A model generated the notes under the pieces. It saw only the letters and a list, made by a program, of their open reading frames with translations, ran no database searches and was not told where the DNA came from. The position numbers and the translations under genes were made by a program. Shown one piece after another: positions 41,146-64,000 of a stretch of 64,000 nt of DNA (position 1 is the first letter of the stretch; every line of letters begins with the position of its first letter). This DNA comes from Candidatus Multivoradales bacterium (GTDB lineage Bacteria > Acidobacteriota > Thermoanaerobaculia > Multivoradales > J023), in NCBI GenBank assembly GCA_965248925.1, contig CBDFLE010000006.1, forward strand, positions 5,154,601 through 5,218,600. Reading direction: 5' to 3'.

Positions 41146-41399
41146 TGCTCAGTGACTATTAGATCTGTGAACCGTATTGCCTCACGGAATGATGTTACCC
41201 GAGGATAGATGTCGCCGCCGTGGTCGCCGAGCTGTGGGAATCGTATGACCTCGCCCTGCCACCTCTTGACAGCGGCCTCAGATTCGAAGAGCAAAGATCA
41301 GCTCGGTGCCGATCAATCTTCTGGGTGATCTGGCGGGGTGATAGTGCCGGGTTCTTCGAGGGGCGCCGAAAGCGGGTTGTGCGCCGCACCGGCGACTTG

Positions 41400-44857: not shown

Positions 44858-44925
44858 GTACTTCCCACTAACAAACCATCGTTCCGTGAGGCAATACGGC
44901 GCACAGGTCTAATTGTCGCTGGGCA

Positions 44926-46730: not shown

Positions 46731-46734
46731 GCCA

Positions 46735-46925
46735 GGGTGTATCGGGTGACTAACTGATGGAAGGGGCCAACGAAGATGCGGCAAGAGCCTACTTCGAAGA
46801 CCGCGAGATACTACGCCAATTTCAGGAAGTCGAAGGGCTGCCCGAGAAGGACAAGTTCGTTGTCAAGAAGCTCCTCGACGCATTTCTTACCAAGAAGCAG
46901 ATTCAGAGGCTGGCTGTTAGGAAGC
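46735..46925 (+). pseudogene. 5'-truncated XRE-family regulator (copy 1)
   Basis: Only MEGANED...KKLLDAFLTKKQIQRL remains; the HTH is lost at the junction with the Rhs fragment. Confidence 0.8.
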
Positions 46926-47450
46926 TGGAGTCAGCAGGTAGTCTGCTGGCACCCAGGCTGCCAACCAAACTAGTTCGTTGCCTTTGTAGAAGACAACGCC
47001 CGCCGCTTGCGCTTCTGCCGCCCCGACCTCCAGGATTACCGCGTTGCGGGCTTTTCGGTGGCCTACCTGGTTGGCCGTTTCTCGGTCAGCCGAGAGGTGG
47101 ACGTACTGCCGGCCCATCGGCTTGAGACCTTCAACCAAAATCACTTCAGCCGTCTTGGGTGACGTGCCATGGTAGAGCACGGCCGGTGGAGTCGCTGGCA
47201 GCTTCAGCAGGCGTTGCGGCGTCGAATGACCGTAGAGCGCTCGAATCCGTCCGTCGTGCAGCTCGAAGCGCTGTTTGTCTGCAGCCGCCATCACTCGCAC
47301 GATGTCTTGTCCGGACAGCCACCGCCATTCTCGGCGCTGGCTACGCAGCGCCGAGAACAACATCTCTACGTCGACCCAGCCCTCTTCGTCCAGCTCCAGC
47401 TCGTAGAGCCACGGTTCGTGGCGAAGGGCGTGGGAAATTGTGCGGCTCAG
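46735..47450. repeat. Diverged copy of 63035-63750 (3' part of the XRE gene plus kptA)
   Basis: Collinear at offset 16300 with many substitutions. Confidence 0.92.
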
Positions 47451-47528
47451 CCGGAGCCGTTCTTCCCCTTTGGATGGAGCCGCTCTTCCCAATCGATGGG
47501 CCTTAACCTTCTGATTCACTCCAGGCAA
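46917..47528 (-). CDS. kptA: RNA 2'-phosphotransferase (KptA/Tpt1), copy 1
   Basis: SHALRHEP, DEEGWV, DKQRFE, IRALYGHS, LYHGT, GLKPMGRQYVHLS, VGHRK, VWLA. Start codon uncertain. Confidence 0.92.
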   Translation of the reverse strand: MPGVNQKVKAHRLGRAAPSKGEERLRLSRTISHALRHEPWLYELELDEEGWVDVEMLFSALRSQRREWRWLSGQDIVRVMAAADKQRFELHDGRIRALYGHSTPQRLLKLPATPPAVLYHGTSPKTAEVILVEGLKPMGRQYVHLSADRETANQVGHRKARNAVILEVGAAEAQAAGVVFYKGNELVWLAAWVPADYLLTPAS

Positions 47529-47883
47529 TCATCTCGTTAACAGCTTCGCGAAACCAATCCCAGAAGCGCTGAAAGGACGCGTCAACCTCATAGCCCGGAG
47601 AAGCGAAATCATGAATGATTAGTACCGGGGCCTGCGAATTCCCAGAGTCATCAGCAACAAAGCACGCAATATCATCGCAATCCACGCGCCTCGCAAACGG
47701 CACGAGTACGCGCGACGGATATCGGCTTGCCAGCCCCTCTGTCAGTTGCAGGAACTCATCCTTCCGCAGAAAATACCACGGTTCCAGATTGAGTAGATCG
47801 AGCGCGACAACCCTTGCGTAGGCTTTGGGAACCGTGAAGTCTGTGTCCTTGAGCCGCTTTGGAAGATCTTCGTCCTTGAGCAC
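47503..47883 (-). CDS. Immunity protein (SUKH/SMI1-like) for the Rhs toxin
   Basis: Small, lower-GC gene directly downstream of the Rhs C-terminus. YPSR.LVPFARR.D.DDIACF..IIHDFAS...F..W pattern. Confidence 0.75.
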   Translation of the reverse strand: MLKDEDLPKRLKDTDFTVPKAYARVVALDLLNLEPWYFLRKDEFLQLTEGLASRYPSRVLVPFARRVDCDDIACFVADDSGNSQAPVLIIHDFASPGYEVDASFQRFWDWFREAVNEMIAWSESEG

Positions 47884-47898
47884 TGAGCACCTGGAAAA

Positions 47899-50800
47899 TC
47901 AGTTCGGCAATCTGGGTGTGCGTGACGTCCCGGTGGGCGGAAGAGGCGGTCGTTGTCTCCCCGTTCGATGGGCAAGAGCCTCGCCGAACGTCCGAGCATC
48001 TCCAAACCTGCCGATCATTTCGGGTGGTAGCCGCTCGCCTGGCGGACGTATTCGAACAGGTATCTCAAAGATACCAAGCTCTCGAGCAATTGCCACCCTT
48101 GTGTTGTCTAGTGTAACCAGTCCCTGTGGCGTCTCTACTACATCGATAGGTGGCCCATCGAAACCTCTCCGACTCATGCTCTCTCGAAGGGCCTGACCAC
48201 GGCCTCTCCCCCCTGCGGTTGTCTGACTGAAGCGGAGTTTATTCGGGTCGACCCTTGCTATCCCCTTGGTGAAACCACGCGCTGCTCTGGCGCCCGCTGG
48301 CAGATCAACAACATCATCAAGCAGCGCGACTCTAGCAGCCCTTCCGGCCAACCCTACTGCAGCGGTCTCACCAATGAGAACCTCCCCGCCGAGCTGGAAG
48401 ATACCAGCCATCGCTTCAGCCTGCTCCTTCTTGGTGCCGCCTCCACCTGCAAGGACTACTGTCTGGAGTCCTTTGATGACCAGACGGTCGGGCAGCTCAC
48501 TAGCTGCTTTGACGAAGCCATCCGGATCTTCGATGTAGCTCTGGAATGAGTCGGAAACTGTGGCCTTCGCGGCTTCCACGGCCTCTCTGAGTTCTTGCAT
48601 GGCCTCCTGGCCGACCTTGGTGTCAGGTGCTTGCGAGGCGGCCACAATATTGGTGGCGGTGTTGAACACCTCGGTAGTCGTCTGGCCAACGCCGATCAGA
48701 GCTGACAGGAAGGCAGTGTCGACGACTTCATCGTCCGTTGAGGTCTCATCGACGCTGTCCAGAACCTCTGTCCTGATCTTCTCCAATTGCTCAGCGGCGT
48801 TCTTCAGGAAGTTGGTGCGCCCATCGGGATCTACATAGACGGTCGGATTCTGGAAGGCATACAGATACCGATGCAGGCTAGGCGGATTCTGCAAATCGCC
48901 TTCGAGCGGGTCGCTGCTCAGGAACAGCCCAAGCTCCGGATCATAGAACCGCGCTTTGGCATAGATCAGCCCGGTTTCCTCATCGTGCTCATGGCCGGTG
49001 AAGCCGAAGGGGTTGGCGTCGGTTTCAACTGAGGCCCGCTTGTTGCCCCAGGCGTCCCAGCGATATCGACCGAGCAAGCTGCCGCCGGGGGTCATCAGCC
49101 CGACGACGCTGCCCAGCGTGTCGTGAAGGTAGTAGGCGCGGCCTTCTACGGGGTCATCGACGGAGAGCAAGCGATCTGGGCCGTAGTTGAATTTGGTGAT
49201 TCCGTCGCTGTCTTCTCGAGTCAGGACGCTTTGCTGATCGTAGACGTATCTCGCTTCACCTTCAGCAGTTAGCTTTTGGACTCTGAGGCCGGTGGCGTCG
49301 AATGCGTAGGTGCCTTGGATGACGCTGGCTTCGATGACCTGGGTGAGCTGATCGCGAGTGTCGTAGGTCAGCTGGGTTAGCTGGCTGTCTCTTGTTCGGG
49401 TTGACTGATTGCCGTTGGCATCGTGGGTGTAGGTGACGGTCTGGGTGGCGTCGAGTTGATCAGCTACGCTCGTCAATCGGTGGCGATTGTCGTAGGCGTA
49501 GAGGCGGTCGGTGATCGTCGTGGCGGCGTTGTCGACGGCCGATTCTGAGATGCGATTGCCTACCGCATCGTAGGTGGTGGTGACGGTTTTCTCGGGGTAG
49601 GCGACGGTGGCGAGGCGGTCTACTGGATCGAAGGCGTAGATGGTGGTTTCGGCTGGCTGGCTGGTGTGGGTCTCGATCTGCTCAGTGCGGTTGCCGTTGC
49701 GGTCGTACTGGTATTGGAAGCTGGAGATCAGGGCGGTGTTCTGGCGATGGTCCAAGTCCCTGATGCGGTTGGCGGGATCGTATTGCCAGGTGCTGGTGGT
49801 GCCGTTGGGATAGTCGATCTGGCTGAGCAGGCTGTTGGCGAGGTACTGATAGTCGGTGACTCCGCCGGGGGTGGTGACGGTGTCGACTCGGTTGAGGGCG
49901 TCGAAGGTGGTGGTGGTTGGGATGCCCGCCGGGTCAATGAGCAGGGTGCGGTTGCCGTTGAGATCGTAGCCGTGAATGAGGGTGTTGTCCCAGCGGTCGG
50001 TTCGGGTGGCTAGGCGATCAAAATCGTCCCAGGTCTGGGTGGTGGTGAGTTCCCCCGTTTGCGTGAAGTGTTCGGCGGTTTGGAGGTGGTTGCCGTTGGC
50101 GTCCCAGGTGGTGGTGATCTGCTCGAGGTCGTCGTCGGTGGAGGGGTCTTCTGGGTACTGAAGGGCTATTTCCCTATTCAGCGAGTCGTGGGTGCGGGTG
50201 AAGAGTTGGTTTTTGGCGTCTCGGTGTTGGGCGAGGTTGCCGTTTTCGTCGAACGTAAAGGTCTCGGTGGCGCCGTCGGCCTGGGTGATGGAGGTGCGGC
50301 GGTCTAGCTCGTCCCAAGTGTAGGTGGTGGGTTGGCTGGCGGCGTCGATCTGGGTGATGAGGTTGCCGTTTTGGTCGAGTTCGTAGGTGGTGAGATCGCC
50401 GTCGGGGTCTTCGACTTCGGTGAGGCGGTGGGCACCGTCGAAGCTGTAAGTCCAGGCGTTGCCCTCGGGGCGCAGCTTGCCGATGCGGTTGCCTTGTGAA
50501 TCGTAGGTGAAGGCTGTGGTTTCAGGTCGGTTGCCGGCGCCGAAGCGGGTGCTGGTGAGCTGGCGGCGGCGGAAGTCGAAGGTGGAATCGGTGAATCTGC
50601 CGGCTGGGTCTTGGCGGCGGATCACATCACCCATGGTGTCTAGGGTGTGGACTGTGGTGGCACTGAGGGGGCGGCGCTCGGTGATGATGAGCTGGCGTTC
50701 GTCATAGTCGAATTGGGCTAGGTTGCGGTTGGCATCCCAGATTTTCGTTCGGTTGCCGGCTGGGTCGTACTGGACTTGCTCGATGAGCAGGCTGGCGCGC

Positions 50801-53800
50801 AAGGTGTGGGTGCGGCGGTTCTCGGCGTCCCAGCGGTTCTCGGTGAGGATGCTTCGGGGGTCGATCTCAGTGAGCTGGTTGCCGGCGGCGTCGTGGGTCC
50901 AGGTGGTGAGGTAGCGGACCTCGGAGCCGTCGCTCAGGACGGGTGGTTCGAGCCGGGTAATTCGGCGGTTGATGTCGTCGTAGGTGAACTCGGTGGTGTT
51001 GCCTCGGCGGTCGGTTTCTGAGAGCAGGTTGCCGGCGTCGTCCCAGGTCATCTGGCGCAGGTAGTTGAAGGGGGCTGGCGAGAGTTCTTCGATCTGACGG
51101 TTGAGGGTGTCGAAGCGGGCGGTGGTGGCGTGGCCGCGGGGGTTAGTGGTGGCTAGGCGGTTGCCGGCGACATCGTAGGTTTGTAGGACGGTGCGGTCTT
51201 CGGGCAGATCCTGGCGGATCATGCGGCCGAGGCCGTCGAACTGGCTGAGGGTGACATTGCCGTTGGCGTCTTCTTGGCGGATGGGGAGGCTGCGAGCGTC
51301 GTAGCCGGTCTGGCTGAGCTGGCCTTCGCGATCGTTGCTAGTCAGACGGCGATTGAGCGGGTCGTAGGTGTGGGTGATGCGGTTCTGGTTGGGCTGGAGC
51401 TGCTCGATCAGGTTGCTAGAGGGATCGAAGGTGAATTCGGTGATGGCGTTGCCAGCGGCGAGCTTGACGGTGGTTTTGATGCGGCGGTTGCGTTCGTCGT
51501 ATTGGTGCTCGGTGCGGTGGCCGCGGCGGTCGATCTTGACAGTCAGATTTCCTGCCGGGTCGTATTCCATCGTCCGCAGCTCGCCGGTGGCGTCGAGCTG
51601 GCGGATCGGGCGGTTGAGGCGATCGTAGGTGGTCTCGCGGATCTGGTTTTCGGGCTCGTTGAAAAGCACCGTCTTGATCAGGTTGCCGTTGCCGTCCCAG
51701 AAACGTTGACTGACTCTCGGGGTGCCGGCTTTCCACTCGGGCTCGGTGCGCTCGATCTCGCGGTCGAGGGCGTCGAATGTGATCGTCGTCACTCGGCCGA
51801 GAGGGTCGGTGCTGTGGACGGGGTTGTTTTCCAGATCGAAGGCGATCTGGCCGGCGATGAAGCCGGCGTCGAGCAGGCGTCGGGTCTCGATGGGGCGGTT
51901 GAGCCGGTCGTAGTCGGTCTCGGTGACGCGGGGGGTGAAGCTCGGGTCGCCGCGGTCGGCGAGGGTCTGGCGCAGGACGTTGCCGGCTGGGTCTAGTTCT
52001 CGGTCTGTGGTGCGGCCCTCGGGCTGTTCGCGACGGATCAGGCGGCCGGCGTCGTCGTAAACCAGCAGGGTGTTGTGGCGGAGGGTGGTGGCGTCGAAGA
52101 CGGTGCTCTCTAGCGTTAGGTTGCCTTCTGGGTCGTACTCCATCTGCTGCTGACCGCCCTCGGCGTTGACGATCTCGATGGGCCGGCCTTCTAGATCGAA
52201 GCTGGTCCGGGTGGCGTGGCCACGGGGATCGATCTGGGTGCGGGTGCGGGCGATGTCGTCGTGCTGGATCTGCTCTACGCTGCCGTCGGCGAGGGTGCGC
52301 AGGATCAGGCGGTCTAGGTCGTCGTAGGCCAGCCGGGTGGTGTGGCTGTTGGGGTCGGTCTGACTGAGCTGGCGGCCTCGTGAATCGAAGGCGAAGGTGG
52401 TCAGGCCGTTTTCGCGGTCGCGCACGGTGGCCGGGTTGCCGAAAGTGTCCCAAGTGAAGGTGCTGGCGTGGCTGCGAGCATCGGTGGTGGTGCGGCGGTC
52501 GCCGTTTGAGTAGTAGGTGTGGCGGCTCTCGACGGTGGAGGCGGCGCCCTCGGCATCGATGACGGTGATGTGTTGGCGGGTCAGATTGCCCTGGGCGTCG
52601 TACTCAAATTGGGTGGTGTGGCCACGGCCGTCGGTGTGGCTCTTGAGGTGGTTTTTGATGCCTTCTGCGATAAAGGCTGAGGGCGGAAAGTAAGTGCTCA
52701 GGCGCTCGCGGGTGACCAGGGTGCCGGTCTCGTCGGTGACCTCGACGCGCTCGGTGGTCCGGTTGCCGTGCCGGTCGTACTCGAAGCTGGTGACGACCCC
52801 GTTTTGGTCGGTGCGGCTGAGCATCAGCACGTCGTCGGGGGTCCAGGTCTTGCGGGTGGTGTGGCCGAGGGGGTCGGTGATCACCAGCGGGTTGCCGTAG
52901 CGGTTGAGGCGGTAAGTGGTGGCCCGCTGGCGGCGATCGGTGACGGTGGTCTCTAGCTCTAGCGTGGCGGCGTTGCCGAGCAGCTGTTGATCGAAGTCGA
53001 AGGTGGTGACGCCGCCCTCGGGGTGGGTGATCGAGTCCACCAGCAGAGCATCGATCGCCAGCCCGGCTTCGATGGCCACGGCACCGCTCTGCCAGGTGTA
53101 CTGGGTGCTGGCGCCTGAGAGGCCATTGGTCGTCGAGGTCATCACCGGCCGCAGCTCCAGGCCGGCGTTGGGCTGGGTCTGGTAGGTGTAGCGCTCGATG
53201 CGACTCTGGTTGTCGCGCTGGGCGGTGATCAGGTTACCGAAACGGTCGTAATCGAAGCTCATCGCCAGGCCGCCAGGGCCGGTGATGTGCTCGATCACTG
53301 GCCCGTCCCAGGCGGCGAAGCTAGCCTGGCGGTAGTCGAAGACCAGGGCTCGGCCGCTGGAGTCGGTGACTTGACGCAGCAGGGGGCCATCGGCGCCGGC
53401 GATGTAGGTGAGGGTGGTGCGGTTGCCGTTGGGGTCTTCGGTCCAGGCCAAATGCCAGGTGCTGTCTTCCGAGAAGAGATAGTGGAAGCGGTTGCCGGAG
53501 GTGGTGAAGAAGTCGAAGCCGCCGTCAGCCGGGTCGGCCCGCAGGGTGCCGTGAGAGCCGCGCAGCGGGCGTAGTCCGCCCTGGCCATCGTCGACGAAAC
53601 GCAGGCCCGAGCCCTCGCCGCCGATCAAGATGGCCTCGCCGCAGGGGGTGATCACGACTCGCGACTGGTAGCGATGGTTCCAGCCCAGGCCGAAGGGGCC
53701 GCCGCTCGACACCGCCAGGCTCGAATAGGTGCGCCGCAGCGCCAGGCCGATGCCGCGGCCGGGGATTTCGAGATCGGTTCTACTGATGGTGAGGTGGCCA

Positions 53801-56800: not shown

Positions 56801-58530
56801 CGGCCGTCGATATAGAGCTGGGGCCGCAGCCGCACCAGGAAAGGTGGTACTTCTGCCAGGCCGCCCCAGAGGTTGATAATCAGGTGATCGTCGGAGGTTG
56901 CCGGGGCGTAGGACAGAGTCAGACGTCGACCGAGAGCTTGGTGTAGGTCTAGCTGGTGATCGAGGATGGCTGGCGAGCCTGCCGTGGTCTCGCCGCGGGT
57001 GATCAATCGCAGCCGGTGGCGGGCGCTCGCCGGTAGCTCGGAGTCTTCGAAGGTTACCGCCAGAACTGGATGATAGAAGCCGTTGGGCAGCAGGCCGAGG
57101 GGTTGGCCGGTAGAGGTCACCGAGCCGAGTTGCTCGGCGTAGGTGCCGCCATCGGTGTCCAGCAGGTATTGCTCGACTCGCTGGCGCAGCAAGCTCAGCG
57201 GGGTCTCGAGCTGGGCCGCGCTCAGCATCTCGGTGACGAAATCGTTGGCCGCGAAGCCCATCGAGGCCAGTACCTCGGTGGATGGCTGTCTCTCGACCGG
57301 TTCCAGAGCCGGCGTCAGCGGGATCCAGCTACGGCCTGAGAAGTCGACCACCGAGCCACGGTAATTGCTGTAGGGCACGTGAGCGCTGACCCAGGTGTGC
57401 TCGACATCGAAGGCGGCGATACGACCGCCGCGAATCACTGGCCGGTGGGCAATACCGGCGCGAGCCAAGTAGTCGGCCACCGCAGTGCCGTCGTCAAGGC
57501 CCAGCTGGGTGTTGAGCCAGGGCAGCGGCAATTCAATCACCCCGCCGACGTAGCGCGCCGCCGCTCCGCTGGCGCGGTAGAGGGCGATCAGCAGACTCGC
57601 CTGGTCGACATCGTTGCCGGCTCCCTGGCGTAGAGTGCCGAGCGCGCCTTTCATGCTGCCGGCGTACCACTCGGTGGCGATCTGGTGGCGAACGAACTCG
57701 TAGATCGCCACATAGTCGTAGCCCAGCTCTTCAGCCTGCAAGAGAATCTCATCAGCTAGCGGCGCGGCGCTGCTGGGCTCCAAGTCGGTAGGCGTGGAGC
57801 CGGGATCGGCGAGATCGAGATAGCTCGGCACGATCGCCGGTTCAGTGACTGGCAGACGGGCCGGCAGGCGCAGCTGGCGATAGGGCAAGCTGGTAGCCCG
57901 CAGCATTGGGCGGTCAAGGGTGGCCGGGTAAGTGTCGAGCAGCTCGGCGGCGGCTTTGGCGGCCGCATTGAGGGCCGGCGCGAGAGCCGGCTGCTCGGTT
58001 CTCTGTGCCGTTCGGAGACTGGCCAAGGGCTCAGCGAGCAGGGTCTTCAGGCGGTCGTGGAACTCTTGCCAATCGCCGCGGACCTGCTCTAGACGAGCTC
58101 TGGGCTCGCCGCTGAGGCCGGCCGCATCGAGGCGGGCGGCGGTGCGTTCGAAGCGGTCGCCTTGCAGCAGGTCCCAGGCTTGGAAGCTCTCCCAGGCGGC
58201 AGTAAGGGCAGAGGTGTCAAGGCGGCTCTTAGCCTTCGAGGGTAGGGCCTGGCGCAGCTCTACTAGCGCTTCGTTGAGGCTGGTAGGCGCAGTCTTTGTG
58301 GGCGATTCCTCGGTCGAGACTGGACGGGTCGAACGCCAGCTCGCCAGCGGCCCCTCGATCGACCGGCCGCGAGCTAGCTGGTCGAGGATTCGTGTCTCTA
58401 GCGCGGTGCGCGAAGTCTCAGCAGGCGGCTCGGTCGCGAGCACGGCGCTGGCAAGCAGGAGAATTCCAGCGCTGGTCAGCCAGCGCCGAAAGCTGCGAGC
58501 AAAGCGAGGCCGCGTTGTTGGGCAGTTCAT
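47899..58530 (-). CDS. Giant Rhs/YD-repeat polymorphic toxin: Sec signal, transglutaminase-like domain, Ig-like domains, YD shell, Rhs core, ParB/Srx-like C-terminal toxin
   Basis: N-terminal RRWLTSAGILLLASAVLA, GNDVDQASLLIALYRASG..ARY, VRVLDAAGRPV and many YDxxGN repeats. Core PFGFTGHEHDEETGLIYAKARFYDP...NPTVYVDPDG. CT LRFSQ...PIDVV...LDNTRVAIARELG. Confidence 0.92.
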   Translation of the reverse strand: MNCPTTRPRFARSFRRWLTSAGILLLASAVLATEPPAETSRTALETRILDQLARGRSIEGPLASWRSTRPVSTEESPTKTAPTSLNEALVELRQALPSKAKSRLDTSALTAAWESFQAWDLLQGDRFERTAARLDAAGLSGEPRARLEQVRGDWQEFHDRLKTLLAEPLASLRTAQRTEQPALAPALNAAAKAAAELLDTYPATLDRPMLRATSLPYRQLRLPARLPVTEPAIVPSYLDLADPGSTPTDLEPSSAAPLADEILLQAEELGYDYVAIYEFVRHQIATEWYAGSMKGALGTLRQGAGNDVDQASLLIALYRASGAAARYVGGVIELPLPWLNTQLGLDDGTAVADYLARAGIAHRPVIRGGRIAAFDVEHTWVSAHVPYSNYRGSVVDFSGRSWIPLTPALEPVERQPSTEVLASMGFAANDFVTEMLSAAQLETPLSLLRQRVEQYLLDTDGGTYAEQLGSVTSTGQPLGLLPNGFYHPVLAVTFEDSELPASARHRLRLITRGETTAGSPAILDHQLDLHQALGRRLTLSYAPATSDDHLIINLWGGLAEVPPFLVRLRPQLYIDGRRIAVGEPVDAAKLHRFEAVVEGPFGSQEISQIVLSGAYHAIAVGGQHFQATELADNDPGDGEQLAARLLSGLAYSYGADWDAAETEIGGLLAVSPARPLPALVIASNSLRAELLLGVPQRLIWEGVTLDAALRVAEPAARDGSTETAADWMRLAALEGSALEQAIFEGQFQVAAISADRGLALARDSGIEVLRLDAGNLTAELPSLNHPQTVRDDVVALIAQGLTVEIPRQPISVSAWTGSTWRAEDPESGTAGYFLSGGLAGGATVEAPENWLLGFLADALAAPMSDSPNTDPLAGVELLVAEGTDSQLGTVDRVYRHPLAVRVLDAAGRPVQGTEVTFYIWAGDGRLLDTQNQESTSLTLRSDARGMARVKLRSGKHTAANPLFLRRFDSDIFQTRVLENVVEAVASSRLGNLVLRQPISSVAFPQDPAALRRTNRDDNQGTDLTVLHGLWQDTLAIAVEDPHGNPVANQDVAFTNTVFVAPGITCTNAPPDPTPGAFFDASIDSITGGFTGCPVTTPRFGDCGSSDLTLRTTSSGQVSAGFIAGPSAITSYPATVSSAALPPLSYEYSISFINNTGLNHDHCGPLAQRFVRTFGFFADAAGQPSSAVRAGQVYDPPVGLEALEWVPECQGIGIADPSPGGPLFFLVCNELRGEWRPAYFYQDNTHPLAVELLPAGTTTPPQIDNLLGRLESRLQAGLDPALHTARVLLPVLPKSPYLDDFNGEVTVLETPEDYLAVGLLDIALGLIANIDQEIGSLWGVQAQITSFEPPVVPLDDDGLAAEPVAVSYQIAPAEYQPTSAFVELLRDGQQVDLLRGQSIAGEGLAELPRGLELGLDGLWQAELVLNLDTPIEVRGDPVPVPLGQQLFADYSRALAVRQDVDLLNQRRCAQPTLFSFELNRPAEVTLIARRIESVETDGSLNTAAAITLIEAEMFADGEHGEPISPTDLPPGDYLIELRGIDAVDGYEEVREARLSSAWDISEILPIGHTLVHGVDLFDGHLTISRTDLEIPGRGIGLALRRTYSSLAVSSGGPFGLGWNHRYQSRVVITPCGEAILIGGEGSGLRFVDDGQGGLRPLRGSHGTLRADPADGGFDFFTTSGNRFHYLFSEDSTWHLAWTEDPNGNRTTLTYIAGADGPLLRQVTDSSGRALVFDYRQASFAAWDGPVIEHITGPGGLAMSFDYDRFGNLITAQRDNQSRIERYTYQTQPNAGLELRPVMTSTTNGLSGASTQYTWQSGAVAIEAGLAIDALLVDSITHPEGGVTTFDFDQQLLGNAATLELETTVTDRRQRATTYRLNRYGNPLVITDPLGHTTRKTWTPDDVLMLSRTDQNGVVTSFEYDRHGNRTTERVEVTDETGTLVTRERLSTYFPPSAFIAEGIKNHLKSHTDGRGHTTQFEYDAQGNLTRQHITVIDAEGAASTVESRHTYYSNGDRRTTTDARSHASTFTWDTFGNPATVRDRENGLTTFAFDSRGRQLSQTDPNSHTTRLAYDDLDRLILRTLADGSVEQIQHDDIARTRTQIDPRGHATRTSFDLEGRPIEIVNAEGGQQQMEYDPEGNLTLESTVFDATTLRHNTLLVYDDAGRLIRREQPEGRTTDRELDPAGNVLRQTLADRGDPSFTPRVTETDYDRLNRPIETRRLLDAGFIAGQIAFDLENNPVHSTDPLGRVTTITFDALDREIERTEPEWKAGTPRVSQRFWDGNGNLIKTVLFNEPENQIRETTYDRLNRPIRQLDATGELRTMEYDPAGNLTVKIDRRGHRTEHQYDERNRRIKTTVKLAAGNAITEFTFDPSSNLIEQLQPNQNRITHTYDPLNRRLTSNDREGQLSQTGYDARSLPIRQEDANGNVTLSQFDGLGRMIRQDLPEDRTVLQTYDVAGNRLATTNPRGHATTARFDTLNRQIEELSPAPFNYLRQMTWDDAGNLLSETDRRGNTTEFTYDDINRRITRLEPPVLSDGSEVRYLTTWTHDAAGNQLTEIDPRSILTENRWDAENRRTHTLRASLLIEQVQYDPAGNRTKIWDANRNLAQFDYDERQLIITERRPLSATTVHTLDTMGDVIRRQDPAGRFTDSTFDFRRRQLTSTRFGAGNRPETTAFTYDSQGNRIGKLRPEGNAWTYSFDGAHRLTEVEDPDGDLTTYELDQNGNLITQIDAASQPTTYTWDELDRRTSITQADGATETFTFDENGNLAQHRDAKNQLFTRTHDSLNREIALQYPEDPSTDDDLEQITTTWDANGNHLQTAEHFTQTGELTTTQTWDDFDRLATRTDRWDNTLIHGYDLNGNRTLLIDPAGIPTTTTFDALNRVDTVTTPGGVTDYQYLANSLLSQIDYPNGTTSTWQYDPANRIRDLDHRQNTALISSFQYQYDRNGNRTEQIETHTSQPAETTIYAFDPVDRLATVAYPEKTVTTTYDAVGNRISESAVDNAATTITDRLYAYDNRHRLTSVADQLDATQTVTYTHDANGNQSTRTRDSQLTQLTYDTRDQLTQVIEASVIQGTYAFDATGLRVQKLTAEGEARYVYDQQSVLTREDSDGITKFNYGPDRLLSVDDPVEGRAYYLHDTLGSVVGLMTPGGSLLGRYRWDAWGNKRASVETDANPFGFTGHEHDEETGLIYAKARFYDPELGLFLSSDPLEGDLQNPPSLHRYLYAFQNPTVYVDPDGRTNFLKNAAEQLEKIRTEVLDSVDETSTDDEVVDTAFLSALIGVGQTTTEVFNTATNIVAASQAPDTKVGQEAMQELREAVEAAKATVSDSFQSYIEDPDGFVKAASELPDRLVIKGLQTVVLAGGGGTKKEQAEAMAGIFQLGGEVLIGETAAVGLAGRAARVALLDDVVDLPAGARAARGFTKGIARVDPNKLRFSQTTAGGRGRGQALRESMSRRGFDGPPIDVVETPQGLVTLDNTRVAIARELGIFEIPVRIRPPGERLPPEMIGRFGDARTFGEALAHRTGRQRPPLPPTGTSRTPRLPN

Positions 58531-58991
58531 GGGAGCACCGCAACCGGCGTGCAGCCGGGATTGTTGTAGGCGTCGAGGATGTCTTTTAGCCGGTTGGCCT
58601 CGGCTCGGTCTGGGCCTCTGGGGCGGCTGCCTGGCGGCCAGTCTGCAAGGAAGGCATGGGCGGCCTCGACGGTTGCCAAGATGTCTAGCGGATCGGAGCC
58701 CACGGCCAGATTCAACTCAGTGGTAATCAACTGGCGAGCGAGCTTGCTGGCGGCGTCCGAGCCGTCATATTGCAGCAGCGCCAGAGTGCCGCTCTGATCG
58801 ATCTGCTGGTCGCCCAACGCCAACCTTCCGACCATAACTCCATCCGACAGGCGGTGCGCCAGATCGTTGCACAAGTCTCTGGCGCAAACCAACGCTTGCA
58901 GCACCCTAGCATCGAGAGCCTCTCCGAGACCAAGCTCCCCCCCCGATGCGCCGATCGAAGACCTGACCGCGACCTTTCTGGCCGCGGTCAA
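58527..58991 (-). CDS. Hypothetical protein overlapping the Rhs start; probably the C-terminal remnant of a larger gene
   Basis: ATGA overlap with the Rhs start. The 3' half (KLARQLITTELN...LDAYNN) looks coding, while the 5' part abuts transposase debris. Confidence 0.5.
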   Translation of the reverse strand: MTAARKVAVRSSIGASGGELGLGEALDARVLQALVCARDLCNDLAHRLSDGVMVGRLALGDQQIDQSGTLALLQYDGSDAASKLARQLITTELNLAVGSDPLDILATVEAAHAFLADWPPGSRPRGPDRAEANRLKDILDAYNNPGCTPVAVLP

Positions 58992-59407
58992 CCATCGGTA
59001 CTCGGCAAAGGCGAGCGGCTGGCCAACGAGATCGCCGCCAGGACCGTAGGGGCCAAAGCCAGACGTAGGGTCGAGGCGAGGGTGGCAGAGATGGATTTCG
59101 AGCTAGCTCTGTACGATCCGAGCCCCTGGTCTTCTGGCGGTGACCGGTGAGGGAGCGATCCGCTCGCAGCTCATCAGAGGACCAGCGCGCCGCTTCGCGT
59201 TGAGCCGGGCGAGGTCGATATCCTCGGGCAATGACTTCCGATCTTGCCGGCGCATTGCTCTGCGCGCCTGTCTTGCTTCTCCTTCTTGCGGTCACTTCGC
59301 TCGCTCAACAGCCCAAAGCAAAGCACCGCCGCCGAGCGTAGTGTCCACCCGGCCCGACGACCTATCGCGGCTTCTGCCGGCCCAAGCCCAGGTGGGTTCG
59401 GCAAGCA

Positions 59408-60147
59408 GTGATCCGGCTCAAGGCGTTGCAGCCCTCCGATGGCTGTCGAGCCATCGCAGCCGCCTTCAATCGCAACTACCGCCATCGCCGGATGACGGTC
59501 GGCAAGAGCTATGTTGCGAAGATCTTCAAAGAGCACCAGCTGGAGATCCTCGCTTGGCGTCAGAAGATCCGCAGGAGGAAACCTGGGACGGTCGACAAGC
59601 GGCTGATCTGGGCCGCCGATCTCACCTATGCCGACAACGCCGCCGGGCAGAAAGAGACCATCTTCGGCTTGCTCGATCACGGGACTCGGCTTTGCTTGCG
59701 CCTTCAGACTTTGAAGACGAAGGCGTCGGTCGAGCTGGTGCGCCAGCTGCTCGACGCGATTGAGCTAGGTGGTAAGCCAAAGTGCCTGCGCACCGACAAC
59801 GAGCCGGTCTTCACCTCGTGGATCTTCAGGCTTTCGCTTCTTCTGCTCGGCATTCGCCACCAGCGCACTCAGGTGGCCTCGCCCTGGCAGAACGGCCGCA
59901 TCGAGCGCTTCTTCGGCACCTTCAAAGAGCGTCTGCTGCGGCGGCGCGAGCCGCTGCCGCAGGGCCGCAAGGCCCAGCGGCAGCTCTGGATGTCTTCCGC
60001 TATTGGTACAACGATCTTCGCCCGCACCAGAGCCTCGACGGCTGTACGCCGGGCGAGATCTGGACCAGTCGCTGGCGCCCGCGAGGGCAGCTACGATTCT
60101 TGACCGCCTGGCAAGGAGTGCTCTCTGGCTTCTACGCGCCCAAGTAG
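59408..60147 (+). pseudogene. rve/integrase-core (IS3/IS481-like) transposase with a frameshift
   Basis: WAADLT, DHGTR, LRTDNEPVF and PWQNGRIERFFGTFKE in one frame; FRYWYNDLRPHQSLDGCTP in another. Confidence 0.8.
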
Positions 60148-60507
60148 AGCGGCTCGGGACGGCGAAGGAAGGGCAGACGGCAGCACGCTGTCCATGGTGA
60201 GCTGCGTCCGGGACACAAGGATTCTAGGCAACCAGAGGAAATCGAGATCCGTCGAGGACGGTTCTCTGAGTGAGTTGAGAATTGTCAGTACGGCGCTGGC
60301 CCTGACGTCAACTACTTTTGTGCATCAGCGACAATTAGAAATGTGCAAACCCGCCGCCGCCGTAGCCGCTGGGCTGTGGGAAACGCGCAGCGTTTTCCAA
60401 GGGGTGTGGGAGGGTGCCGTCTGCGGCAGCCTTCCATGCCCCGGCAGACCGGCGGCTGGGGGGAGTTGGGGGTCCGGGGGAAGAGGGGGGGTTGGTTTTC
60501 CACAGGT

Positions 60508-61275
60508 TCAGGATTTCCTCCGTAAGTTGTTGTTGTTCTTGACGGCCACCTGGGCGCGGTAACTCTTGCCTGAAAGCTCCAGGATGGTGGCGTGATGGAC
60601 GAGTCGATCGATGGCGCATGCAGTGGTCATGGGGTCCTTGAAGGTCTTGTCCCACTCGGAGAAAACCAGGTTCGAGGTGATCATCACGCTCTTGCGCTCG
60701 TAGCGCTCGGAGAGGAAAGTGAAGAGCACCTCCATCTCTTCGCGGCTATGTTGGACGTAGCCGATATCGTAGAGGATGACGACCTCGAAGCGATCGAGTC
60801 GCTTGAGTACGATCTCTAGCTCGAGATCGCGTTTGGCGACCAGCAAGCGCTGGACGAGCTTGAAGGCCGGCAGGAAGAGCACGGAGACGCCTCGCTGGAC
60901 GAGTTCATATCCAATGGCGCTGACCAGGTGCGTCTTGCCACGACCGGGCAGACCGAAGGCGAGCAGGTTCTCGCACCGCTCTGCGAAACCGCCCTCGCTC
61001 AGGTTGGGCAGTTGCCGGCGAACCGCGACCGGCAGTCGGGCGCGATCGAGAGTCGCTAGGGTTTTCTCGTGCGGCAGACCGGAGCTGCGAAGCAGCCGTT
61101 CGACGCGGCGCCGACGGCGGTCTTCGATCTCCACTTCGGCGAGCTGACGGAGAAAGCGTTCGAAGCTCCAGCCTTCTTGCTCGGCCTTGGTACTCACCTC
61201 TGCGAGAGCGCTCACGAAGCTGGGCAACTTCAAGGTGCGAAGCAAGCCGGGGAGACTGTCGTTGGTGACGCTCAC
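60508..61275 (-). CDS. istB: IS21 helper ATPase
   Basis: GLPGRGKTHL, ERYERKSVMITSNL.FSEW, AIDRLVHHA, GKSYR. Walker B reads LYDIGY. Confidence 0.93.
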   Translation of the reverse strand: MSVTNDSLPGLLRTLKLPSFVSALAEVSTKAEQEGWSFERFLRQLAEVEIEDRRRRRVERLLRSSGLPHEKTLATLDRARLPVAVRRQLPNLSEGGFAERCENLLAFGLPGRGKTHLVSAIGYELVQRGVSVLFLPAFKLVQRLLVAKRDLELEIVLKRLDRFEVVILYDIGYVQHSREEMEVLFTFLSERYERKSVMITSNLVFSEWDKTFKDPMTTACAIDRLVHHATILELSGKSYRAQVAVKNNNNLRRKS

Positions 61276-62756
61276 TGGACCACCTCCACGCTGCTGGTGA
61301 GCAGTTGGTCATAGCTGGCGAGATCGGCCACCGGGGGTTCCATGTTGGGAATCTGAGGAGTTGCGAGCCGGGTCAGCGCTTCAACCGCCTCGAAACGGGG
61401 TAGCTTCCGCTCGGCCTCGATCAACTCCAGCGCCGCCTCGACCTCGCACTGCATGGTGGTCGCGGCCAGCTTCAGGATCCGCAGATAGTCCAGGTCGGCC
61501 TGGCGCTGCGAGAGGCCCTCGCTCAGGATGTCATAGGCCCTTCGGAAGACCAGGGTAGGGAACATCGCATCGCGGAACCGGTAGCGTGCGAACGCGCCCG
61601 GCTTGCGCACCAAGGATGCGATCACATGCCGGTAGTCGACCCGATGCTTGCCGTGGCCACACAGGCGCTCGATACTGAGCTGCTTGCGGCCACCGTAGAG
61701 CACCTCCAAGGTCATCTCGCGCAGCAGCACCACCACCTGCTCGCCGATCAGTCGCGACGGCACCGAGTAGGTGTTGTTCTTCACCCGAATGGTGCTGCAC
61801 GAGCTCACCCGGAGACGCAGCCTACGGTGCTGCGGGAGCCGATCGGCTTGTAGCAGCCGCATGACCGCAAGTTCCTCGCGCAAGCGCTTCGCGCGCCGCG
61901 CATTGGCCTGCTCCAGCCGCTCGCTGATCCACGCTTGGTAGAGCTCGACGCTGTCGAAGTCCCGGCTGCCACGGAGCAGAAGATGCTGCTTCAGCTGCCG
62001 CTTCAGCGCCCCGTTGGCCGCCTCGATGTCGCCGTTCTGGTGGCTCTGGCCGATGCCGATCGTCCGCGGCTTCATCCCCAAATGCTCCATCACCGAGACG
62101 TACTCGTCATTGAAACCTCGCTGCCCGGTCTTGAGGTCATGGGTCGCTGCCGTCGAGTTGTCCGTCTGGTGGTACCGGGGCACCCGGCCCAGCCGGAAAA
62201 CGGCGGTCTGGACTCCCTGGCGAATCGCCAGCATCGACTCGGAAAAGCACACCGTCGCCGACTGCCAGTTGCTGTACGGCAGCACCGAGTGGCACAGCAG
62301 GTGAAGGAACACCTCGCCACCGATCCTCACCCCCAGCTTCTTGCAGCAGGTGAAGTCGGTCTGCAACGCCTCACCAGGCCGGTGGTTTTGGCCGAAGAAC
62401 ACCTCCTTCTCTGGACCCTCAGTAGCCCGCCACTGCTTCACATGGCGCTGAAAGGTGCGCAGCTGCCCCTGGTGATAGCGGTCGGGATGGCGGGCCATCA
62501 GATCCTCGAAAAGCGCCTTGCCCTCCAGCTCGGGAGCCGACTCCAGGCGGGCGGTGATCGCCGGCCAATCGGCCGCGAAAGGGTCCTTGCGGGTACGCCA
62601 CCGGCGCTCCGCTTTCAACTCCGACGGCAGACCACCAGCCGCCACATACCGGCGCGCCGTGTTGCGGTGCATGCCGGCTCGTAGAGAGGCCACGCCGATA
62701 CCGGCGCCTTGCTTCAGCTCGCTCATCAGTTTCCTCACTTGTGCGTCTGTAACCAC
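61272..62756 (-). CDS. istA: IS21 transposase
   Basis: HRNTARRY HTH, PGEALQTDFT, HQTDN, NGDIE, NNTYSVPSRLIG. Likely GTG start at 62756 after GAGGAG. Confidence 0.93.
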   Translation of the reverse strand: MVTDAQVRKLMSELKQGAGIGVASLRAGMHRNTARRYVAAGGLPSELKAERRWRTRKDPFAADWPAITARLESAPELEGKALFEDLMARHPDRYHQGQLRTFQRHVKQWRATEGPEKEVFFGQNHRPGEALQTDFTCCKKLGVRIGGEVFLHLLCHSVLPYSNWQSATVCFSESMLAIRQGVQTAVFRLGRVPRYHQTDNSTAATHDLKTGQRGFNDEYVSVMEHLGMKPRTIGIGQSHQNGDIEAANGALKRQLKQHLLLRGSRDFDSVELYQAWISERLEQANARRAKRLREELAVMRLLQADRLPQHRRLRLRVSSCSTIRVKNNTYSVPSRLIGEQVVVLLREMTLEVLYGGRKQLSIERLCGHGKHRVDYRHVIASLVRKPGAFARYRFRDAMFPTLVFRRAYDILSEGLSQRQADLDYLRILKLAATTMQCEVEAALELIEAERKLPRFEAVEALTRLATPQIPNMEPPVADLASYDQLLTSSVEVVQ

Positions 62757-62788
62757 GCCCGCTCCTCGGTCGAGTAAACGAGCATTTT

Positions 62789-62828
62789 CCCGCCTCTTGG
62801 GGGTCGCTAGCGACCCCCAAGAGGCGGG
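62789..62828. repeat. Perfect 40-bp palindrome between the IS21 end and the istA start
   Basis: CCCGCCTCTTGGGGGTCGCT|AGCGACCCCCAAGAGGCGGG. Confidence 0.9.
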
Positions 62829-62884
62829 ACTCGGATGCACAGGAGTAATTGTCGTCAGTGCACAGGTCTAATTGTCGCTGAGCA

Positions 62885-63224
62885 CGATCGCCTCCGACAA
62901 CTACGGAAGCAGAGGAATCTGTCTCAAACCGAACTCGGGAAACTCGTGGACCTGCACTACACCCATGTTGGCCGCTACGAGCGTGGGGCTTCTCGGCCTA
63001 CCGCGGATGCACTCGGGCGCATCGGCGAAGCGCTGGGTGTATCGGGTGACTACCTGATGGAAGGGGCCAACGAAGATGCGGCAAGAGCCCACTTCGAGGA
63101 CCGCGAGCTACTACGCCAATTTCAGGAAGTCGAAGGGCTGCCCGAGGAGGACAAGTTCGTCGTCAAGAAGCTCCTCGACGCATTCCTGACCAAGAAGCAG
63201 ATTCAGAGGCTGGCTGCTAGGTAG
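62885..63224 (+). pseudogene. XRE-family HTH regulator (copy 2) with its first codons removed by the IS21 end
   Basis: DRLRQLRKQRNLSQTELG...GRYERGASRP...LGVSGDYL begins immediately after the IS21 terminal CA. Confidence 0.82.
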
Positions 63225-63753
63225 CTGGAGTCAGCACGTAGGCTGCTGGCACCCAGTCTGCCAGCCAAACCAGGCCGTTGCCTTGGTAGAAGACAACGCC
63301 CGCGGCATGCGCTTCTGCCGCCCCGACCTCCAGGATTACCGCGTTGCGGGCCTTTCGGTGGCCCACCTGGTTGGCCGTTTCCCGGTCGGCCGAGAGGTGG
63401 ACGTACTGTCGACCCATCGGCTTGAGACCTTCGGCCAAGATCACTTCAGCCGTCTTGGGTGCCGTGCCGTGGTAGAGCACCGCCGGTGGAGTTGCCGGCA
63501 CCTTCAGTAGGCGTTGCGGCGTCGAATGACCGTAGAGCGCTCGAATCCGTCCGCTGCGCAACTCGAAGCGTTGTTTGTCGGCAGCTGCCATCACTTGCTC
63601 GATGTCTTGCTCGGACAGCCGACGCCATTCCCGGCGCTGGCTTCGTAATCCCGACAACAGTGTCTCGATCTCCACCCAGCCCTCTTCGTCCAGCTCCAGC
63701 TCGTATAGCCACGGCTCGTGGCGCAGAGCGTGCGAGATTGTGCGGCTTAGTCG
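63217..63753 (-). CDS. kptA: RNA 2'-phosphotransferase (KptA/Tpt1), copy 2; no canonical start before the conserved N-terminus
   Basis: The frame upstream of the listed ORF reads RLSRTISHALRHEPWLYELELDEEGWV. All KptA motifs are present. Confidence 0.85.
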   Translation of the reverse strand, partial: RLSRTISHALRHEPWLYELELDEEGWVEIETLLSGLRSQRREWRRLSEQDIEQVMAAADKQRFELRSGRIRALYGHSTPQRLLKVPATPPAVLYHGTAPKTAEVILAEGLKPMGRQYVHLSADRETANQVGHRKARNAVILEVGAAEAHAAGVVFYQGNGLVWLADWVPAAYVLTPAT

Positions 63754-64000
63754 AGGTGAGTCGTACTTTGAGATACCAGAAGCCCCTCTCGCGGAAGTAA
63801 CTCTTGGAAGTCATCTGCGATGACTTCCAAGTAGCCGTTATTGCTGAAAAATACGGCAAAGTGTTTCTTGGTCGCTACACTCCCCCAGATGCCGTTTGGC
63901 TCGATACTCAGAAGTTCCTTACACCACGCAGAATCGACGATCTCGACTAGTGAGTCGTAGCTCCCTTCTGCGAAGCCCAGGCTCTGCAATTCGCCACGAA
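63747..64000 (-). CDS. Probable immunity protein, 5' part outside the window
   Basis: Lower-GC small ORF in the same position relative to kptA as 47503-47883 but unrelated in sequence (LVEIVDSAW...KHFAVFF...LEVIADDF). Confidence 0.55.
   Translation of the reverse strand, partial: RGELQSLGFAEGSYDSLVEIVDSAWCKELLSIEPNGIWGSVATKKHFAVFFSNNGYLEVIADDFQELLPREGLLVSQSTTHLD

Follow-up and report, generated by a model that had tools for sequence, protein, structure and literature searches.

The window, as we call the whole stretch of 64,000 nucleotides analysed here, lies on contig CBDFLE010000006.1 of Candidatus Multivoradales bacterium and carries two copies of kptA, the gene of an RNA 2′-phosphotransferase of the Tpt1/KptA type. 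A self-BLAST of the window finds kptA in a repeat of 719 bp (46735-47453 and 63035-63753, 90.1% identity, ungapped, offset 16300), which comprises the kptA gene on the minus strand and, convergent to it on the plus strand, the 3′ portion of an XRE gene. The repeat is best read as the constant tail of a polymorphic-toxin unit in which toxin, immunity gene and kptA follow one another. One such unit is complete on the minus strand, where a 3543-aa Rhs protein is followed by a 126-aa protein, here called Imm1, and by kptA. The other runs off the window, and of its genes ahead of kptA only the end of a second immunity-type gene, up2, is visible; that a toxin stands ahead of up2, outside the window, we only infer. 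The features of the two units are as follows.

46735..47453, no strand: repeat copy 1, kptA core and XRE 3′ end (self-BLAST and alignment)
46917..47528, minus strand: kptA copy 1, RNA 2′-phosphotransferase (Tpt1/KptA), longest open reading frame (ORF) 203 aa, deposited form 191 aa (PF01885, 4e-36)
47503..47883, minus strand: Imm1, predicted cognate immunity protein of 126 aa, SUKH-like (homologues match SMI1_KNR4)
47899..58530, minus strand: giant Rhs-type polymorphic toxin, 3543 aa (Pfam: RHS_repeat 3e-102, DUF6531 3e-12, Transglut_core 5e-8, Big_1 5e-7)
47902..48261, minus strand: CT1, predicted toxin domain of ParB/sulfiredoxin fold, Tox-ParBL1-like (AlphaFold AF2 model and Foldseek)
63035..63753, no strand: repeat copy 2, kptA core and XRE 3′ end (self-BLAST and alignment)
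63217..63774, minus strand: kptA copy 2, no canonical start (PF01885, 3e-26)
63747..64000 (ORF from 63998 to 63747), minus strand: up2, 83-codon 3′ part of a second immunity-type gene running off the window (family profile)

The Rhs protein consists of a transglutaminase-like region, Big_1, DUF6531, RHS repeats in 11 stretches and a variable C-terminus without a Pfam match. It has the marks of an Rhs polymorphic toxin, namely an RHS shell, a C-terminal domain that is common to other toxin scaffolds and a small gene 15 nt downstream. That small gene encodes Imm1, which starts 15 nt after the Rhs stop and shares the 26 nt of its 3′ end with the longest kptA ORF. The up2 family comprises proteins of about 130 aa, and the TAA of up2 overlaps the first conserved kptA codons. 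Neither Imm1 nor up2 matches Pfam, NCBIfam or PADLOC, and for up2 the ESM Atlas gave unnamed clusters only; homologues of Imm1 do match SMI1_KNR4 (7e-6 at locus L005, 3e-4 at L080, 4e-9 at L085). An original prediction, made from the letters of the window, held that the first of the two small genes follows a complete Rhs toxin and that each kptA stands directly behind a small gene of low GC content, the two being unrelated. This agrees with what is found: the Rhs protein encoded from 58530 to 47899 is complete, the GC content is 0.53 for Imm1 and 0.51 for up2 compared to 0.65 for the Rhs core (0.59 for the toxin end, CT1), and hhalign gives the two families a probability of only 0.2% of being related.

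Both kptA copies pass the PF01885 cut-off of 26 bits, copy 1 with 125 and copy 2 with 93 bits; the match to the NCBIfam RNA 2′-phosphotransferase equivalog models (1e-52) falls below the cut-offs of those models. The catalytic residues of Tpt1/KptA, an Arg-His pair followed by two arginines, were taken as named in PMC8120803. In a 42-sequence alignment invariance is complete at R87 and R140 and nearly so at R36 and H37, and copy 1 has all four. The reading frame of copy 2 also keeps all catalytic residues, yet they begin upstream of its sole canonical start. No ATG, GTG or TTG occurs between the in-frame TGA (63813-63811) and the GTG at 63675, and the deposited 152-aa form, which starts at this GTG, is without the Arg-His pair. 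Over the 26 core codons ahead of the GTG the two copies differ by 8 synonymous and 0 non-synonymous changes. A purine-rich Shine-Dalgarno-like run stands 8 nt ahead of an ATC at 63774-63772; this ATC is a possible start and would give an N-terminus of the usual length, and copy 2 is probably still expressed. Over the two genes 39 synonymous and 23 non-synonymous differences give a dN/dS of 0.17, and by this comparison kptA is under purifying selection.

The surroundings of kptA in other genomes were examined in a sample of loci. This type of KptA is common and well conserved, as a protein search gave 2718 proteins at E<=1e-10 among 3119 candidates, the best matches being 60-86% identical. The locus sample consists of the best 80 of 588 confirmed tblastn matches to the window KptA (42-sequence alignment), taken with 10-kb flanks (1,125,020 nt). 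Neighbour families were found by tblastn and iterated profile searches, after which every ORF in the 80 loci was scanned. Fourteen ORFs of the Imm1 family in 13 loci were recovered, 12 of which end 9-65 nt before the conserved kptA core. The up2 family gave 14 ORFs in 14 loci, with 13 ending within -9 to +66 nt of that core and a toxin preceding in 12. The toxin C-terminal domain was found in 23 ORFs of 22 loci. All but one of the 23 share the strand of kptA and end 366-846 nt ahead of its core; the exception, in L061, is 7.2 kb away from kptA. Altogether an Imm1- or up2-family gene lies against kptA in 27 of the 80 loci, and in 21 the toxin is present as well. The phyla concerned include Pseudomonadota, Actinomycetota, Planctomycetota, Myxococcota, Acidobacteriota and Fibrobacterota, with others. 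Because the same gene order recurs in unrelated genomes, the arrangement of kptA behind the toxin is more than chance.

The toxins that stand directly beside kptA are nearly all of one kind: 21 of 22 come from a single superfamily with a ParB/sulfiredoxin fold. The toxin of L036 was considered as a member and rejected as unrelated; this locus also has a DUF6960 gene. Six loci have the immunity-kptA pair without the toxin (L027, L064, L077, L076, L046 and L080). In L027 another Rhs toxin pair stands ahead, L076 has a transposase, in L046 the contig end cuts the locus, and L080 has only a weak toxin match. In L064 (1508-3104) and L077 (9422-11262), from two Arthrobacter genomes, the toxin-less Imm1-kptA pair is followed by Imm8 (L064) or a Tdi1-like gene (L077); by their gene content both are polyimmunity islands, with kptA among the genes. 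The kptA loci that remain look like housekeeping contexts. A different arrangement was seen in L010 (8069-14487, Synergistia metagenome-assembled genome, MAG) and L028 (7202-13421, Vulcanimicrobiota MAG), where a TatD DNase, a ThiF-like protein, KptA and a 1300-aa TPR/PQQ beta-propeller protein are encoded in this conserved order; the KptA proteins of these two loci are nearly identical in the tree described below.

The C-terminal domain of the window toxin, CT1, has no match in Pfam, NCBIfam or PADLOC. It also gives no match to PF02195 (ParBc) at E<=10, so that it falls outside the classical Tox-ParB/ToxB definition. A second group of toxin domains, CT2, was seeded from the RHS protein in L035; its partner is up2, whereas the partner of CT1 is always Imm1, and CT1 homologues lie upstream of Imm1 homologues in the related loci. 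For the window unit that runs off the edge a CT2 toxin paired with the up2 family would be expected. AlphaFold (AF2) models of CT1 and CT2 reached pLDDT values of 86.3 and 84.4. In a Foldseek comparison of the CT1 model with the PDB the best matches are ParB N-domains, Noc, sulfiredoxin, PadC, SbnI and the free serine kinase, at E values from 5e-5 to 1e-2, and the 11 matches at E<=1e-3 are all ParB, Noc, sulfiredoxin or PadC. The CT2 model retrieves the same kinds of protein, with ParB, Noc, KorB and sulfiredoxin first, at weaker values (best 3.9e-3). A sequence search of the PDB with the toxin profile gave no significant relative, with ParB at best at 0.18 and chance-level SecA stretches at E 0.009.

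Both groups have an R/N-F/Y-S/A-Q motif and an invariant N-T-R in common, as well as a hydrophobic strand that closes with D-G. In the CT1 alignment S36 and N77-T78-R79 are invariant; in CT2 the N-T-R is likewise invariant and the serine position is mostly alanine. A direct profile comparison of CT1 with CT2 (hhalign) gives an E value of 5e-5. From the models, CT1 and CT2 are predicted to form one toxin superfamily with the ParB/sulfiredoxin fold. The family is large: the toxin profile matches 3231 cluster representatives at E<=1e-3 and 1734 at E<=1e-10. In the 150 matches listed the toxin domain is at the C-terminus of the protein, and in longer carriers it is found behind RHS/YD shells, haemagglutinin repeats, PT-HINT, PAAR, PT-TG and LysM (279 at E<=1e-5 among 8000 scored).

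The association was also approached from the toxin side. When 72,556 plasmid records were searched with CT1 and CT2 alone, 13 records were obtained, of which 9 distinct loci were analysed; the 4 other records belong to additional plasmids of these species and match with identical statistics. Four of the 9 loci have kptA less than 1 kb from the toxin-immunity pair (Bacillus mycoides, Duffyella gerundensis, Burkholderia ambifaria and B. multivorans). In Bacillus mycoides kptA is on the same strand and overlaps the immunity gene, with equal spacing in all three plasmids; the B. multivorans toxin match is without the first 42 profile positions. Any kptA at all is present in 64 of the 72,556 plasmid records. 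A strong enrichment of kptA beside toxin loci, as proposed at the outset, is seen from both sides, in 27 of 80 kptA loci and in 4 of 9 toxin-seeded plasmid loci. The link between kptA and toxin is strong but facultative in both directions. On the Duffyella plasmid (L088, 4791-5878) kptA is on the other strand from a CdiA-type toxin, and on its own strand an annotated HTH regulator and a 75-aa gene lie upstream, so that the parts recur in another layout. On a 4858-bp Acetobacter aceti plasmid (L091) kptA is accompanied by two HTH genes and a RelE/ParE toxin gene, and none of the three families is present.

A KptA tree of 85 sequences combined those of the 80 loci with both copies from the window and three from plasmids, leaving aside the partial one of B. 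multivorans. A mostly Chloroflexota cluster of 30 rows stands out, 29 of which are without toxin neighbours, and 27 of the 50 genome loci outside this cluster are toxin-linked. Imm1-type and up2-type neighbours are intermixed in the tree. The two window KptA proteins are sisters (88% aa identity, tree support 97) despite upstream genes of unrelated families. The intermixing and the sister position of the window copies indicate that the cassette before kptA has been exchanged repeatedly and kptA retained.

Among 88 long KptA-containing proteins no delivery domain was found, whether RHS, haemagglutinin, PAAR or another. One metagenomic protein of 415 aa (P0242) has an Imm1-like region at residues 132-209 (E 3e-8), followed by KptA at 230-407; this may be a genuine fusion, or else an artefact of gene calling. 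Eight of the 88 are fused to an APH-type kinase, PF01636 (P0313, P0314, P0317, P0318, P0321, P0322, P0326 and P0327); these may be single-chain writer/eraser pairs for a phosphorylated substrate. Another of the 88 carries RtcB.

The remaining features of the region concern the XRE genes, the mobile elements and the relics between the units.

44926..46730, minus strand: copy of an internal part of the Rhs gene (residues ~789-1390), probable relic of a further unit (self-BLAST, 99.7%)
46735..46924, plus strand: XRE copy 1, 3′ remnant only, without HTH, with a premature TAA and the original stop lost
58527..58991, minus strand: 154-aa ORF of no known family (no Pfam, NCBIfam or PADLOC match), overlapping the Rhs start by 4 nt (ORF list)
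59408..60103, plus strand: transposase (rve) fragment (Pfam)
60325..62881, minus strand: IS21-family element, istA 62840 to 61272, istB 61275 to 60508, 23-nt inverted repeats
62835..63224, plus strand: XRE copy 2, RstR-family/CapH-like repressor (HTH_3 1.6e-14)

The original prediction counted two kptA genes, each with a convergent XRE gene, at an offset of 16300. The repeat is there, but neither XRE gene is intact. In copy 1 the homology starts in mid-gene at 46735, an in-frame TAA follows five codons in, and the HTH part is missing. Copy 2 is a recognizable repressor (NCBIfam RstR 88 bits with a cut-off of 80; PADLOC capH 1e-13), the first 16 codons of which are encoded by the right inverted repeat of the IS21 element. 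The XRE gene had also been taken as part of the conserved unit. This does not hold up: a homologous convergent XRE gene follows kptA in only 2 of the 80 related loci (L057 and L071), and HTH_3 was found in 2 of 30 downstream ORFs scanned. The XRE gene is a lineage-specific neighbour and not a defining part of the unit. The IS21 element is identified by an IstB_IS21 match (9.5e-60), an rve/Mu-transposase-C protein and inverted repeats at 60325-60347 and 62859-62881. When the plasmids were searched with the IS region by megablast, no match was obtained.

A second repeat, overlooked by the original prediction, joins 44926-46730 to 54359-56163 (1805 bp, 99.7% identity, 6 mismatches). This Rhs fragment lies 4 nt from the XRE remnant at one end and adjoins an IS21-like end at the other. 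A 638-aa ORF at 44868-46784 extends across it as a chimaera; as an orphan toxin C-terminus this ORF was rejected, since it copies the internal Big_1 region and not the C-terminus. Standing behind the XRE remnant, the fragment seems to be what is left of a third unit. Read along the minus strand, the presumed toxin outside the window is followed by up2-kptA-XRE, IS21, Rhs-Imm1-kptA-XRE relic and Rhs fragment, which looks like a decayed tandem array of toxin units. A tandem array in which toxin and immunity gene are swapped and kptA stays constant had been predicted, and the sister kptA copies behind unrelated upstream families support it. The homology between the two units ends at 47453/63753, precisely where the conserved KptA core begins.

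To the left of the Rhs fragment, 49-bp inverted repeats (86%) occur at 41146-41194 and 44877-44925, the right one adjoining the fragment. A reading of them as chance was rejected, since they resemble the IS21 ends at 60325 and 62881. The 3.8 kb between them encode a pirin and a sigma-54 activator and contain a 216-aa ORF, and a transposase is absent. Further away, the repeat table of the window shows seven-fold repeated modules in 1-25000, with a spacing of ~3.2-5.6 kb and a recurring coding stretch for H-H-I-x-x-D-G-W-S, a motif which we take to be typical of non-ribosomal peptide synthetases (NRPS). Between these modules and the rearranged toxin region there is a prolyl oligopeptidase gene at 38475-40667 (Peptidase_S9_N 1e-99).

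The sequence comparisons, fold predictions and gene neighbourhoods suggest a possible function for KptA in these loci. The unit would consist of a ParB/sulfiredoxin-fold toxin, a small cognate immunity gene and kptA, with toxin and immunity in at least two exchangeable types and kptA as the constant part. KptA would be a second, enzymatic immunity layer that acts against the whole toxin family, whichever immunity protein the cell carries. Sulfiredoxin, SerK and SbnI use the ParB/Srx fold as an ATP-binding phosphotransfer module (PMC3482391, PMC12704722). The toxin could accordingly place an NTP-derived phosphate on an RNA 2′-OH, or otherwise leave an RNA 2′-phosphate, and KptA would remove this phosphate with NAD+. 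Protection across the family would account for the persistence of kptA through cassette changes and for the Imm-kptA pairs in toxin-less islands. In addition, kptA may serve as the downstream homology arm for cassette exchange; the homology breakpoint at the first conserved kptA codons fits such an anchor and is compatible with a protective role too. Taken as a whole, this is a serious candidate which falls somewhat short of being probable. Its parts do not stand equally firm. The three-gene order and its recurrence across phyla, the restriction to a single toxin superfamily, the fold of the toxin models and the selection on kptA are what the analysis shows. That KptA protects is fairly probable. 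A lesion in the form of an RNA 2′-phosphate made by phosphotransfer can be put forward only tentatively. The most far-reaching form, in which the ParB/sulfiredoxin-fold toxins are RNA 2′-kinases, the first such toxin class, and the physiological job of KptA is to erase their lesion as a family-wide immunity, must be considered doubtful.

Several observations weigh against KptA as an immunity layer. Every step of the model is drawn from gene context and predicted fold. At the sequence level the homology of CT1 and CT2 has only moderate backing (hhalign probability 67%). The 80 loci lean to the KptA clade of the window, and the figure of 27/80 over-represents that clade; 52 of the 80 loci have no such neighbours. 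The toxin-seeded sample is small. On plasmids, three of the 4 linked cases (Duffyella, B. ambifaria and B. multivorans) have kptA and toxin on opposite strands, so that kptA is not always co-transcribed. Five of the 9 toxin-seeded loci (Ralstonia, B. contaminans, Streptococcus, N. gonorrhoeae and Mesorhizobium) have no kptA, and none of 5 further plasmid kptA loci carries the toxin, Imm1 or up2 families. The N. gonorrhoeae locus, in a maf island and without kptA, is also the one closest in likeness to the Tox-ParBL1 prototype. In the window itself, kptA copy 2 is without a canonical start. Finally, the sole ParB-fold toxin that has been studied, CdiA ToxB, is reported to be a ParB-CTPase-fold ATPase that collapses the nucleoid, with no RNA lesion (bioRxiv 10.64898/2026.05.05.722872).

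Other explanations should be considered. KptA could protect against a different lesion, such as the 2′-phosphate or 2′,3′-cyclic phosphate ends left by an RNase, or it could work by its other known activity, the ADP-ribosylation of 5′-phosphate ends, or on a small phosphorylated metabolite. This would account for the same gene linkage as erasure of a 2′-phosphate mark would. Roles of KptA in end-healing after metal-independent RNases and in 5′-phosphate ADP-ribosylation have been described (PMC9503650, PMC8120803), and Zhang et al. held nuclease activity possible for ParB-type toxins (PMC3482391). However, mending cut RNA takes more than KptA alone, and no ligase, 2H phosphoesterase or end-healing gene was found among the scanned neighbours (78 + 37 upstream and 30 downstream ORFs). 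The nearest structural matches of the toxin models are NTP-binding and phosphotransfer proteins and not nucleases, and we regard another lesion as unlikely. The narrow range of adjoining toxins, 21 of 22 from one ParB/sulfiredoxin-fold superfamily, also speaks against the initial suggestion that KptA is a generic guard against nuclease toxins.

A biochemical link between KptA and the toxin may also be missing altogether, with a resident kptA serving as landing site or homology arm, or travelling as a hitch-hiker on mobile DNA. The exact end of the unit homology at the first conserved kptA codons agrees with this, as do the GC content of the cassettes, which is below that of the surroundings, the transposases and IS elements that flank L001, L066, L076 and the window units, and the KptA relationships, which partly track taxonomy with Imm1- and up2-type neighbours intermixed. 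A pure landing site should, however, gather many toxin families and not, in 21 of 22 cases, a single superfamily. The linkage is kept on plasmids in both orientations, in Firmicutes and Proteobacteria, and toxin-less Imm-kptA pairs are seen in polyimmunity contexts, along with one Imm1-like/KptA fusion. A merely positional role is for these reasons not the likely one. If KptA were itself a toxic ADP-ribosyltransferase with XRE as its antitoxin or regulator, its ADP-ribosyltransferase fold and the weak matches of XRE copy 2 to antitoxin-type HTH models would be explained, and 'KptA/Tpt1-like toxins' have been raised as a possibility (PMC11833690). Yet XRE accompanies kptA in only 2 of 80 loci, both window XRE genes are damaged with kptA under purifying selection, a delivery domain occurs in 0 of the 88 long KptA proteins, and KptA, in contrast to fast-evolving toxins, keeps 60-86% identity between distant taxa; this role is very improbable. 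The region is heavily rearranged (IS21, transposase fragment, the 99.7% identical Rhs fragment), which might suggest that the repeat is a mere local duplication or assembly artefact. With copies that are 10% divergent with a synonymous excess (39 vs 23), upstream genes that are unrelated and the same gene order in dozens of unrelated genomes, this can hardly be maintained.

The linkage is of interest beyond the window, since the natural 2′-phosphate substrate of bacterial KptA is not known (PMC9095486). The linkage between kptA and toxin turns this into a testable question, namely whether the toxin makes what KptA removes. If KptA does act as the proposed second layer, an activity could be assigned to Tox-ParBL1-like domains, a family of thousands without biochemistry, and polymorphic toxin loci, so far pictured with two genes, would gain a three-gene layout of toxin, binding immunity and repair enzyme. 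Should the link be positional only, kptA would still be a recombination anchor for cassette exchange.

In the full-text literature no paper was found that places kptA beside toxin-immunity pairs, and passages of PMC3482391, PMC9503650, PMC8120803, PMC11833690 and PMC12704722, where it would most be expected, contain nothing of the kind; Burroughs & Aravind 2016 and the additional files of Zhang et al. 2012 lay outside the coverage of this search. The closest described family is Tox-ParBL1, defined by a ParB-like fold, an N-terminal Ser/Thr, an [NT][RT][RT] motif and pairing with Imm-SUKH or Imm44, with NGK_2271 of Neisseria gonorrhoeae as prototype (Zhang et al. 2012, Biol Direct 7:18, PMC3482391). 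The window toxin domain fits this family. It is likewise a C-terminal domain of Rhs, haemagglutinin, PAAR and HINT-type toxins with a predicted ParB-like fold, its R-F-S-Q serine and invariant N-T-R fit the published pattern, and the gene that follows is SUKH-like by its homologues. By tblastn, CT1 is 31% identical (E 2e-5) to the end of a maf-island toxin of N. gonorrhoeae, possibly NGK_2271, with a SUKH-1 gene behind it. Unlike Tox-ParBL1, the CT2 branch has mostly alanine for the serine and goes with an unnamed immunity family. The first 300,000 of the 357,715 characters of PMC3482391 contain no mention of KptA or Tpt1.

The CdiA ToxB study (bioRxiv 10.64898/2026.05.05.722872), in its abstract and section 5, does not mention kptA either. 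ToxB resembles the window toxin in having a ParB-type fold as the warhead of a polymorphic toxin with a small immunity gene next to it. It was found via PF02195 and is rare (52 of 68,709 species), unlike the window family, which has no PF02195 match and 3231 cluster representatives.

Enzymatic immunity as such has precedents. The Tri1/Tre1 pair is reportedly a case of bifunctional immunity, in which an enzyme reverses the toxin's modification. PARG reverses the RNA ADP-ribosylation by RhsP2 (PMC11833690). The logic proposed for the window unit is the same, in that an enzyme, in addition to a binding immunity protein or in its place, would undo the lesion and may cover non-cognate toxins of the same chemistry. 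Here, unlike in both precedents, the enzyme is KptA and is encoded by a separate third gene.

The proposed chemistry itself exists in nature. In archaea the ATP-dependent RNA 2′-kinase ArkI writes an internal tRNA 2′-phosphate (2′-phosphouridine) and KptA erases it (Ohira et al. 2022, PMC9095486). ArkI differs from the window toxin in its protein-kinase-like fold and its housekeeping role in thermophiles, being neither a secreted toxin nor of the ParB fold. Escherichia coli KptA erases the ArkI mark in vivo (PMC9095486), and a bacterial KptA is thus able to remove an RNA 2′-phosphate of the kind that the toxin may leave.

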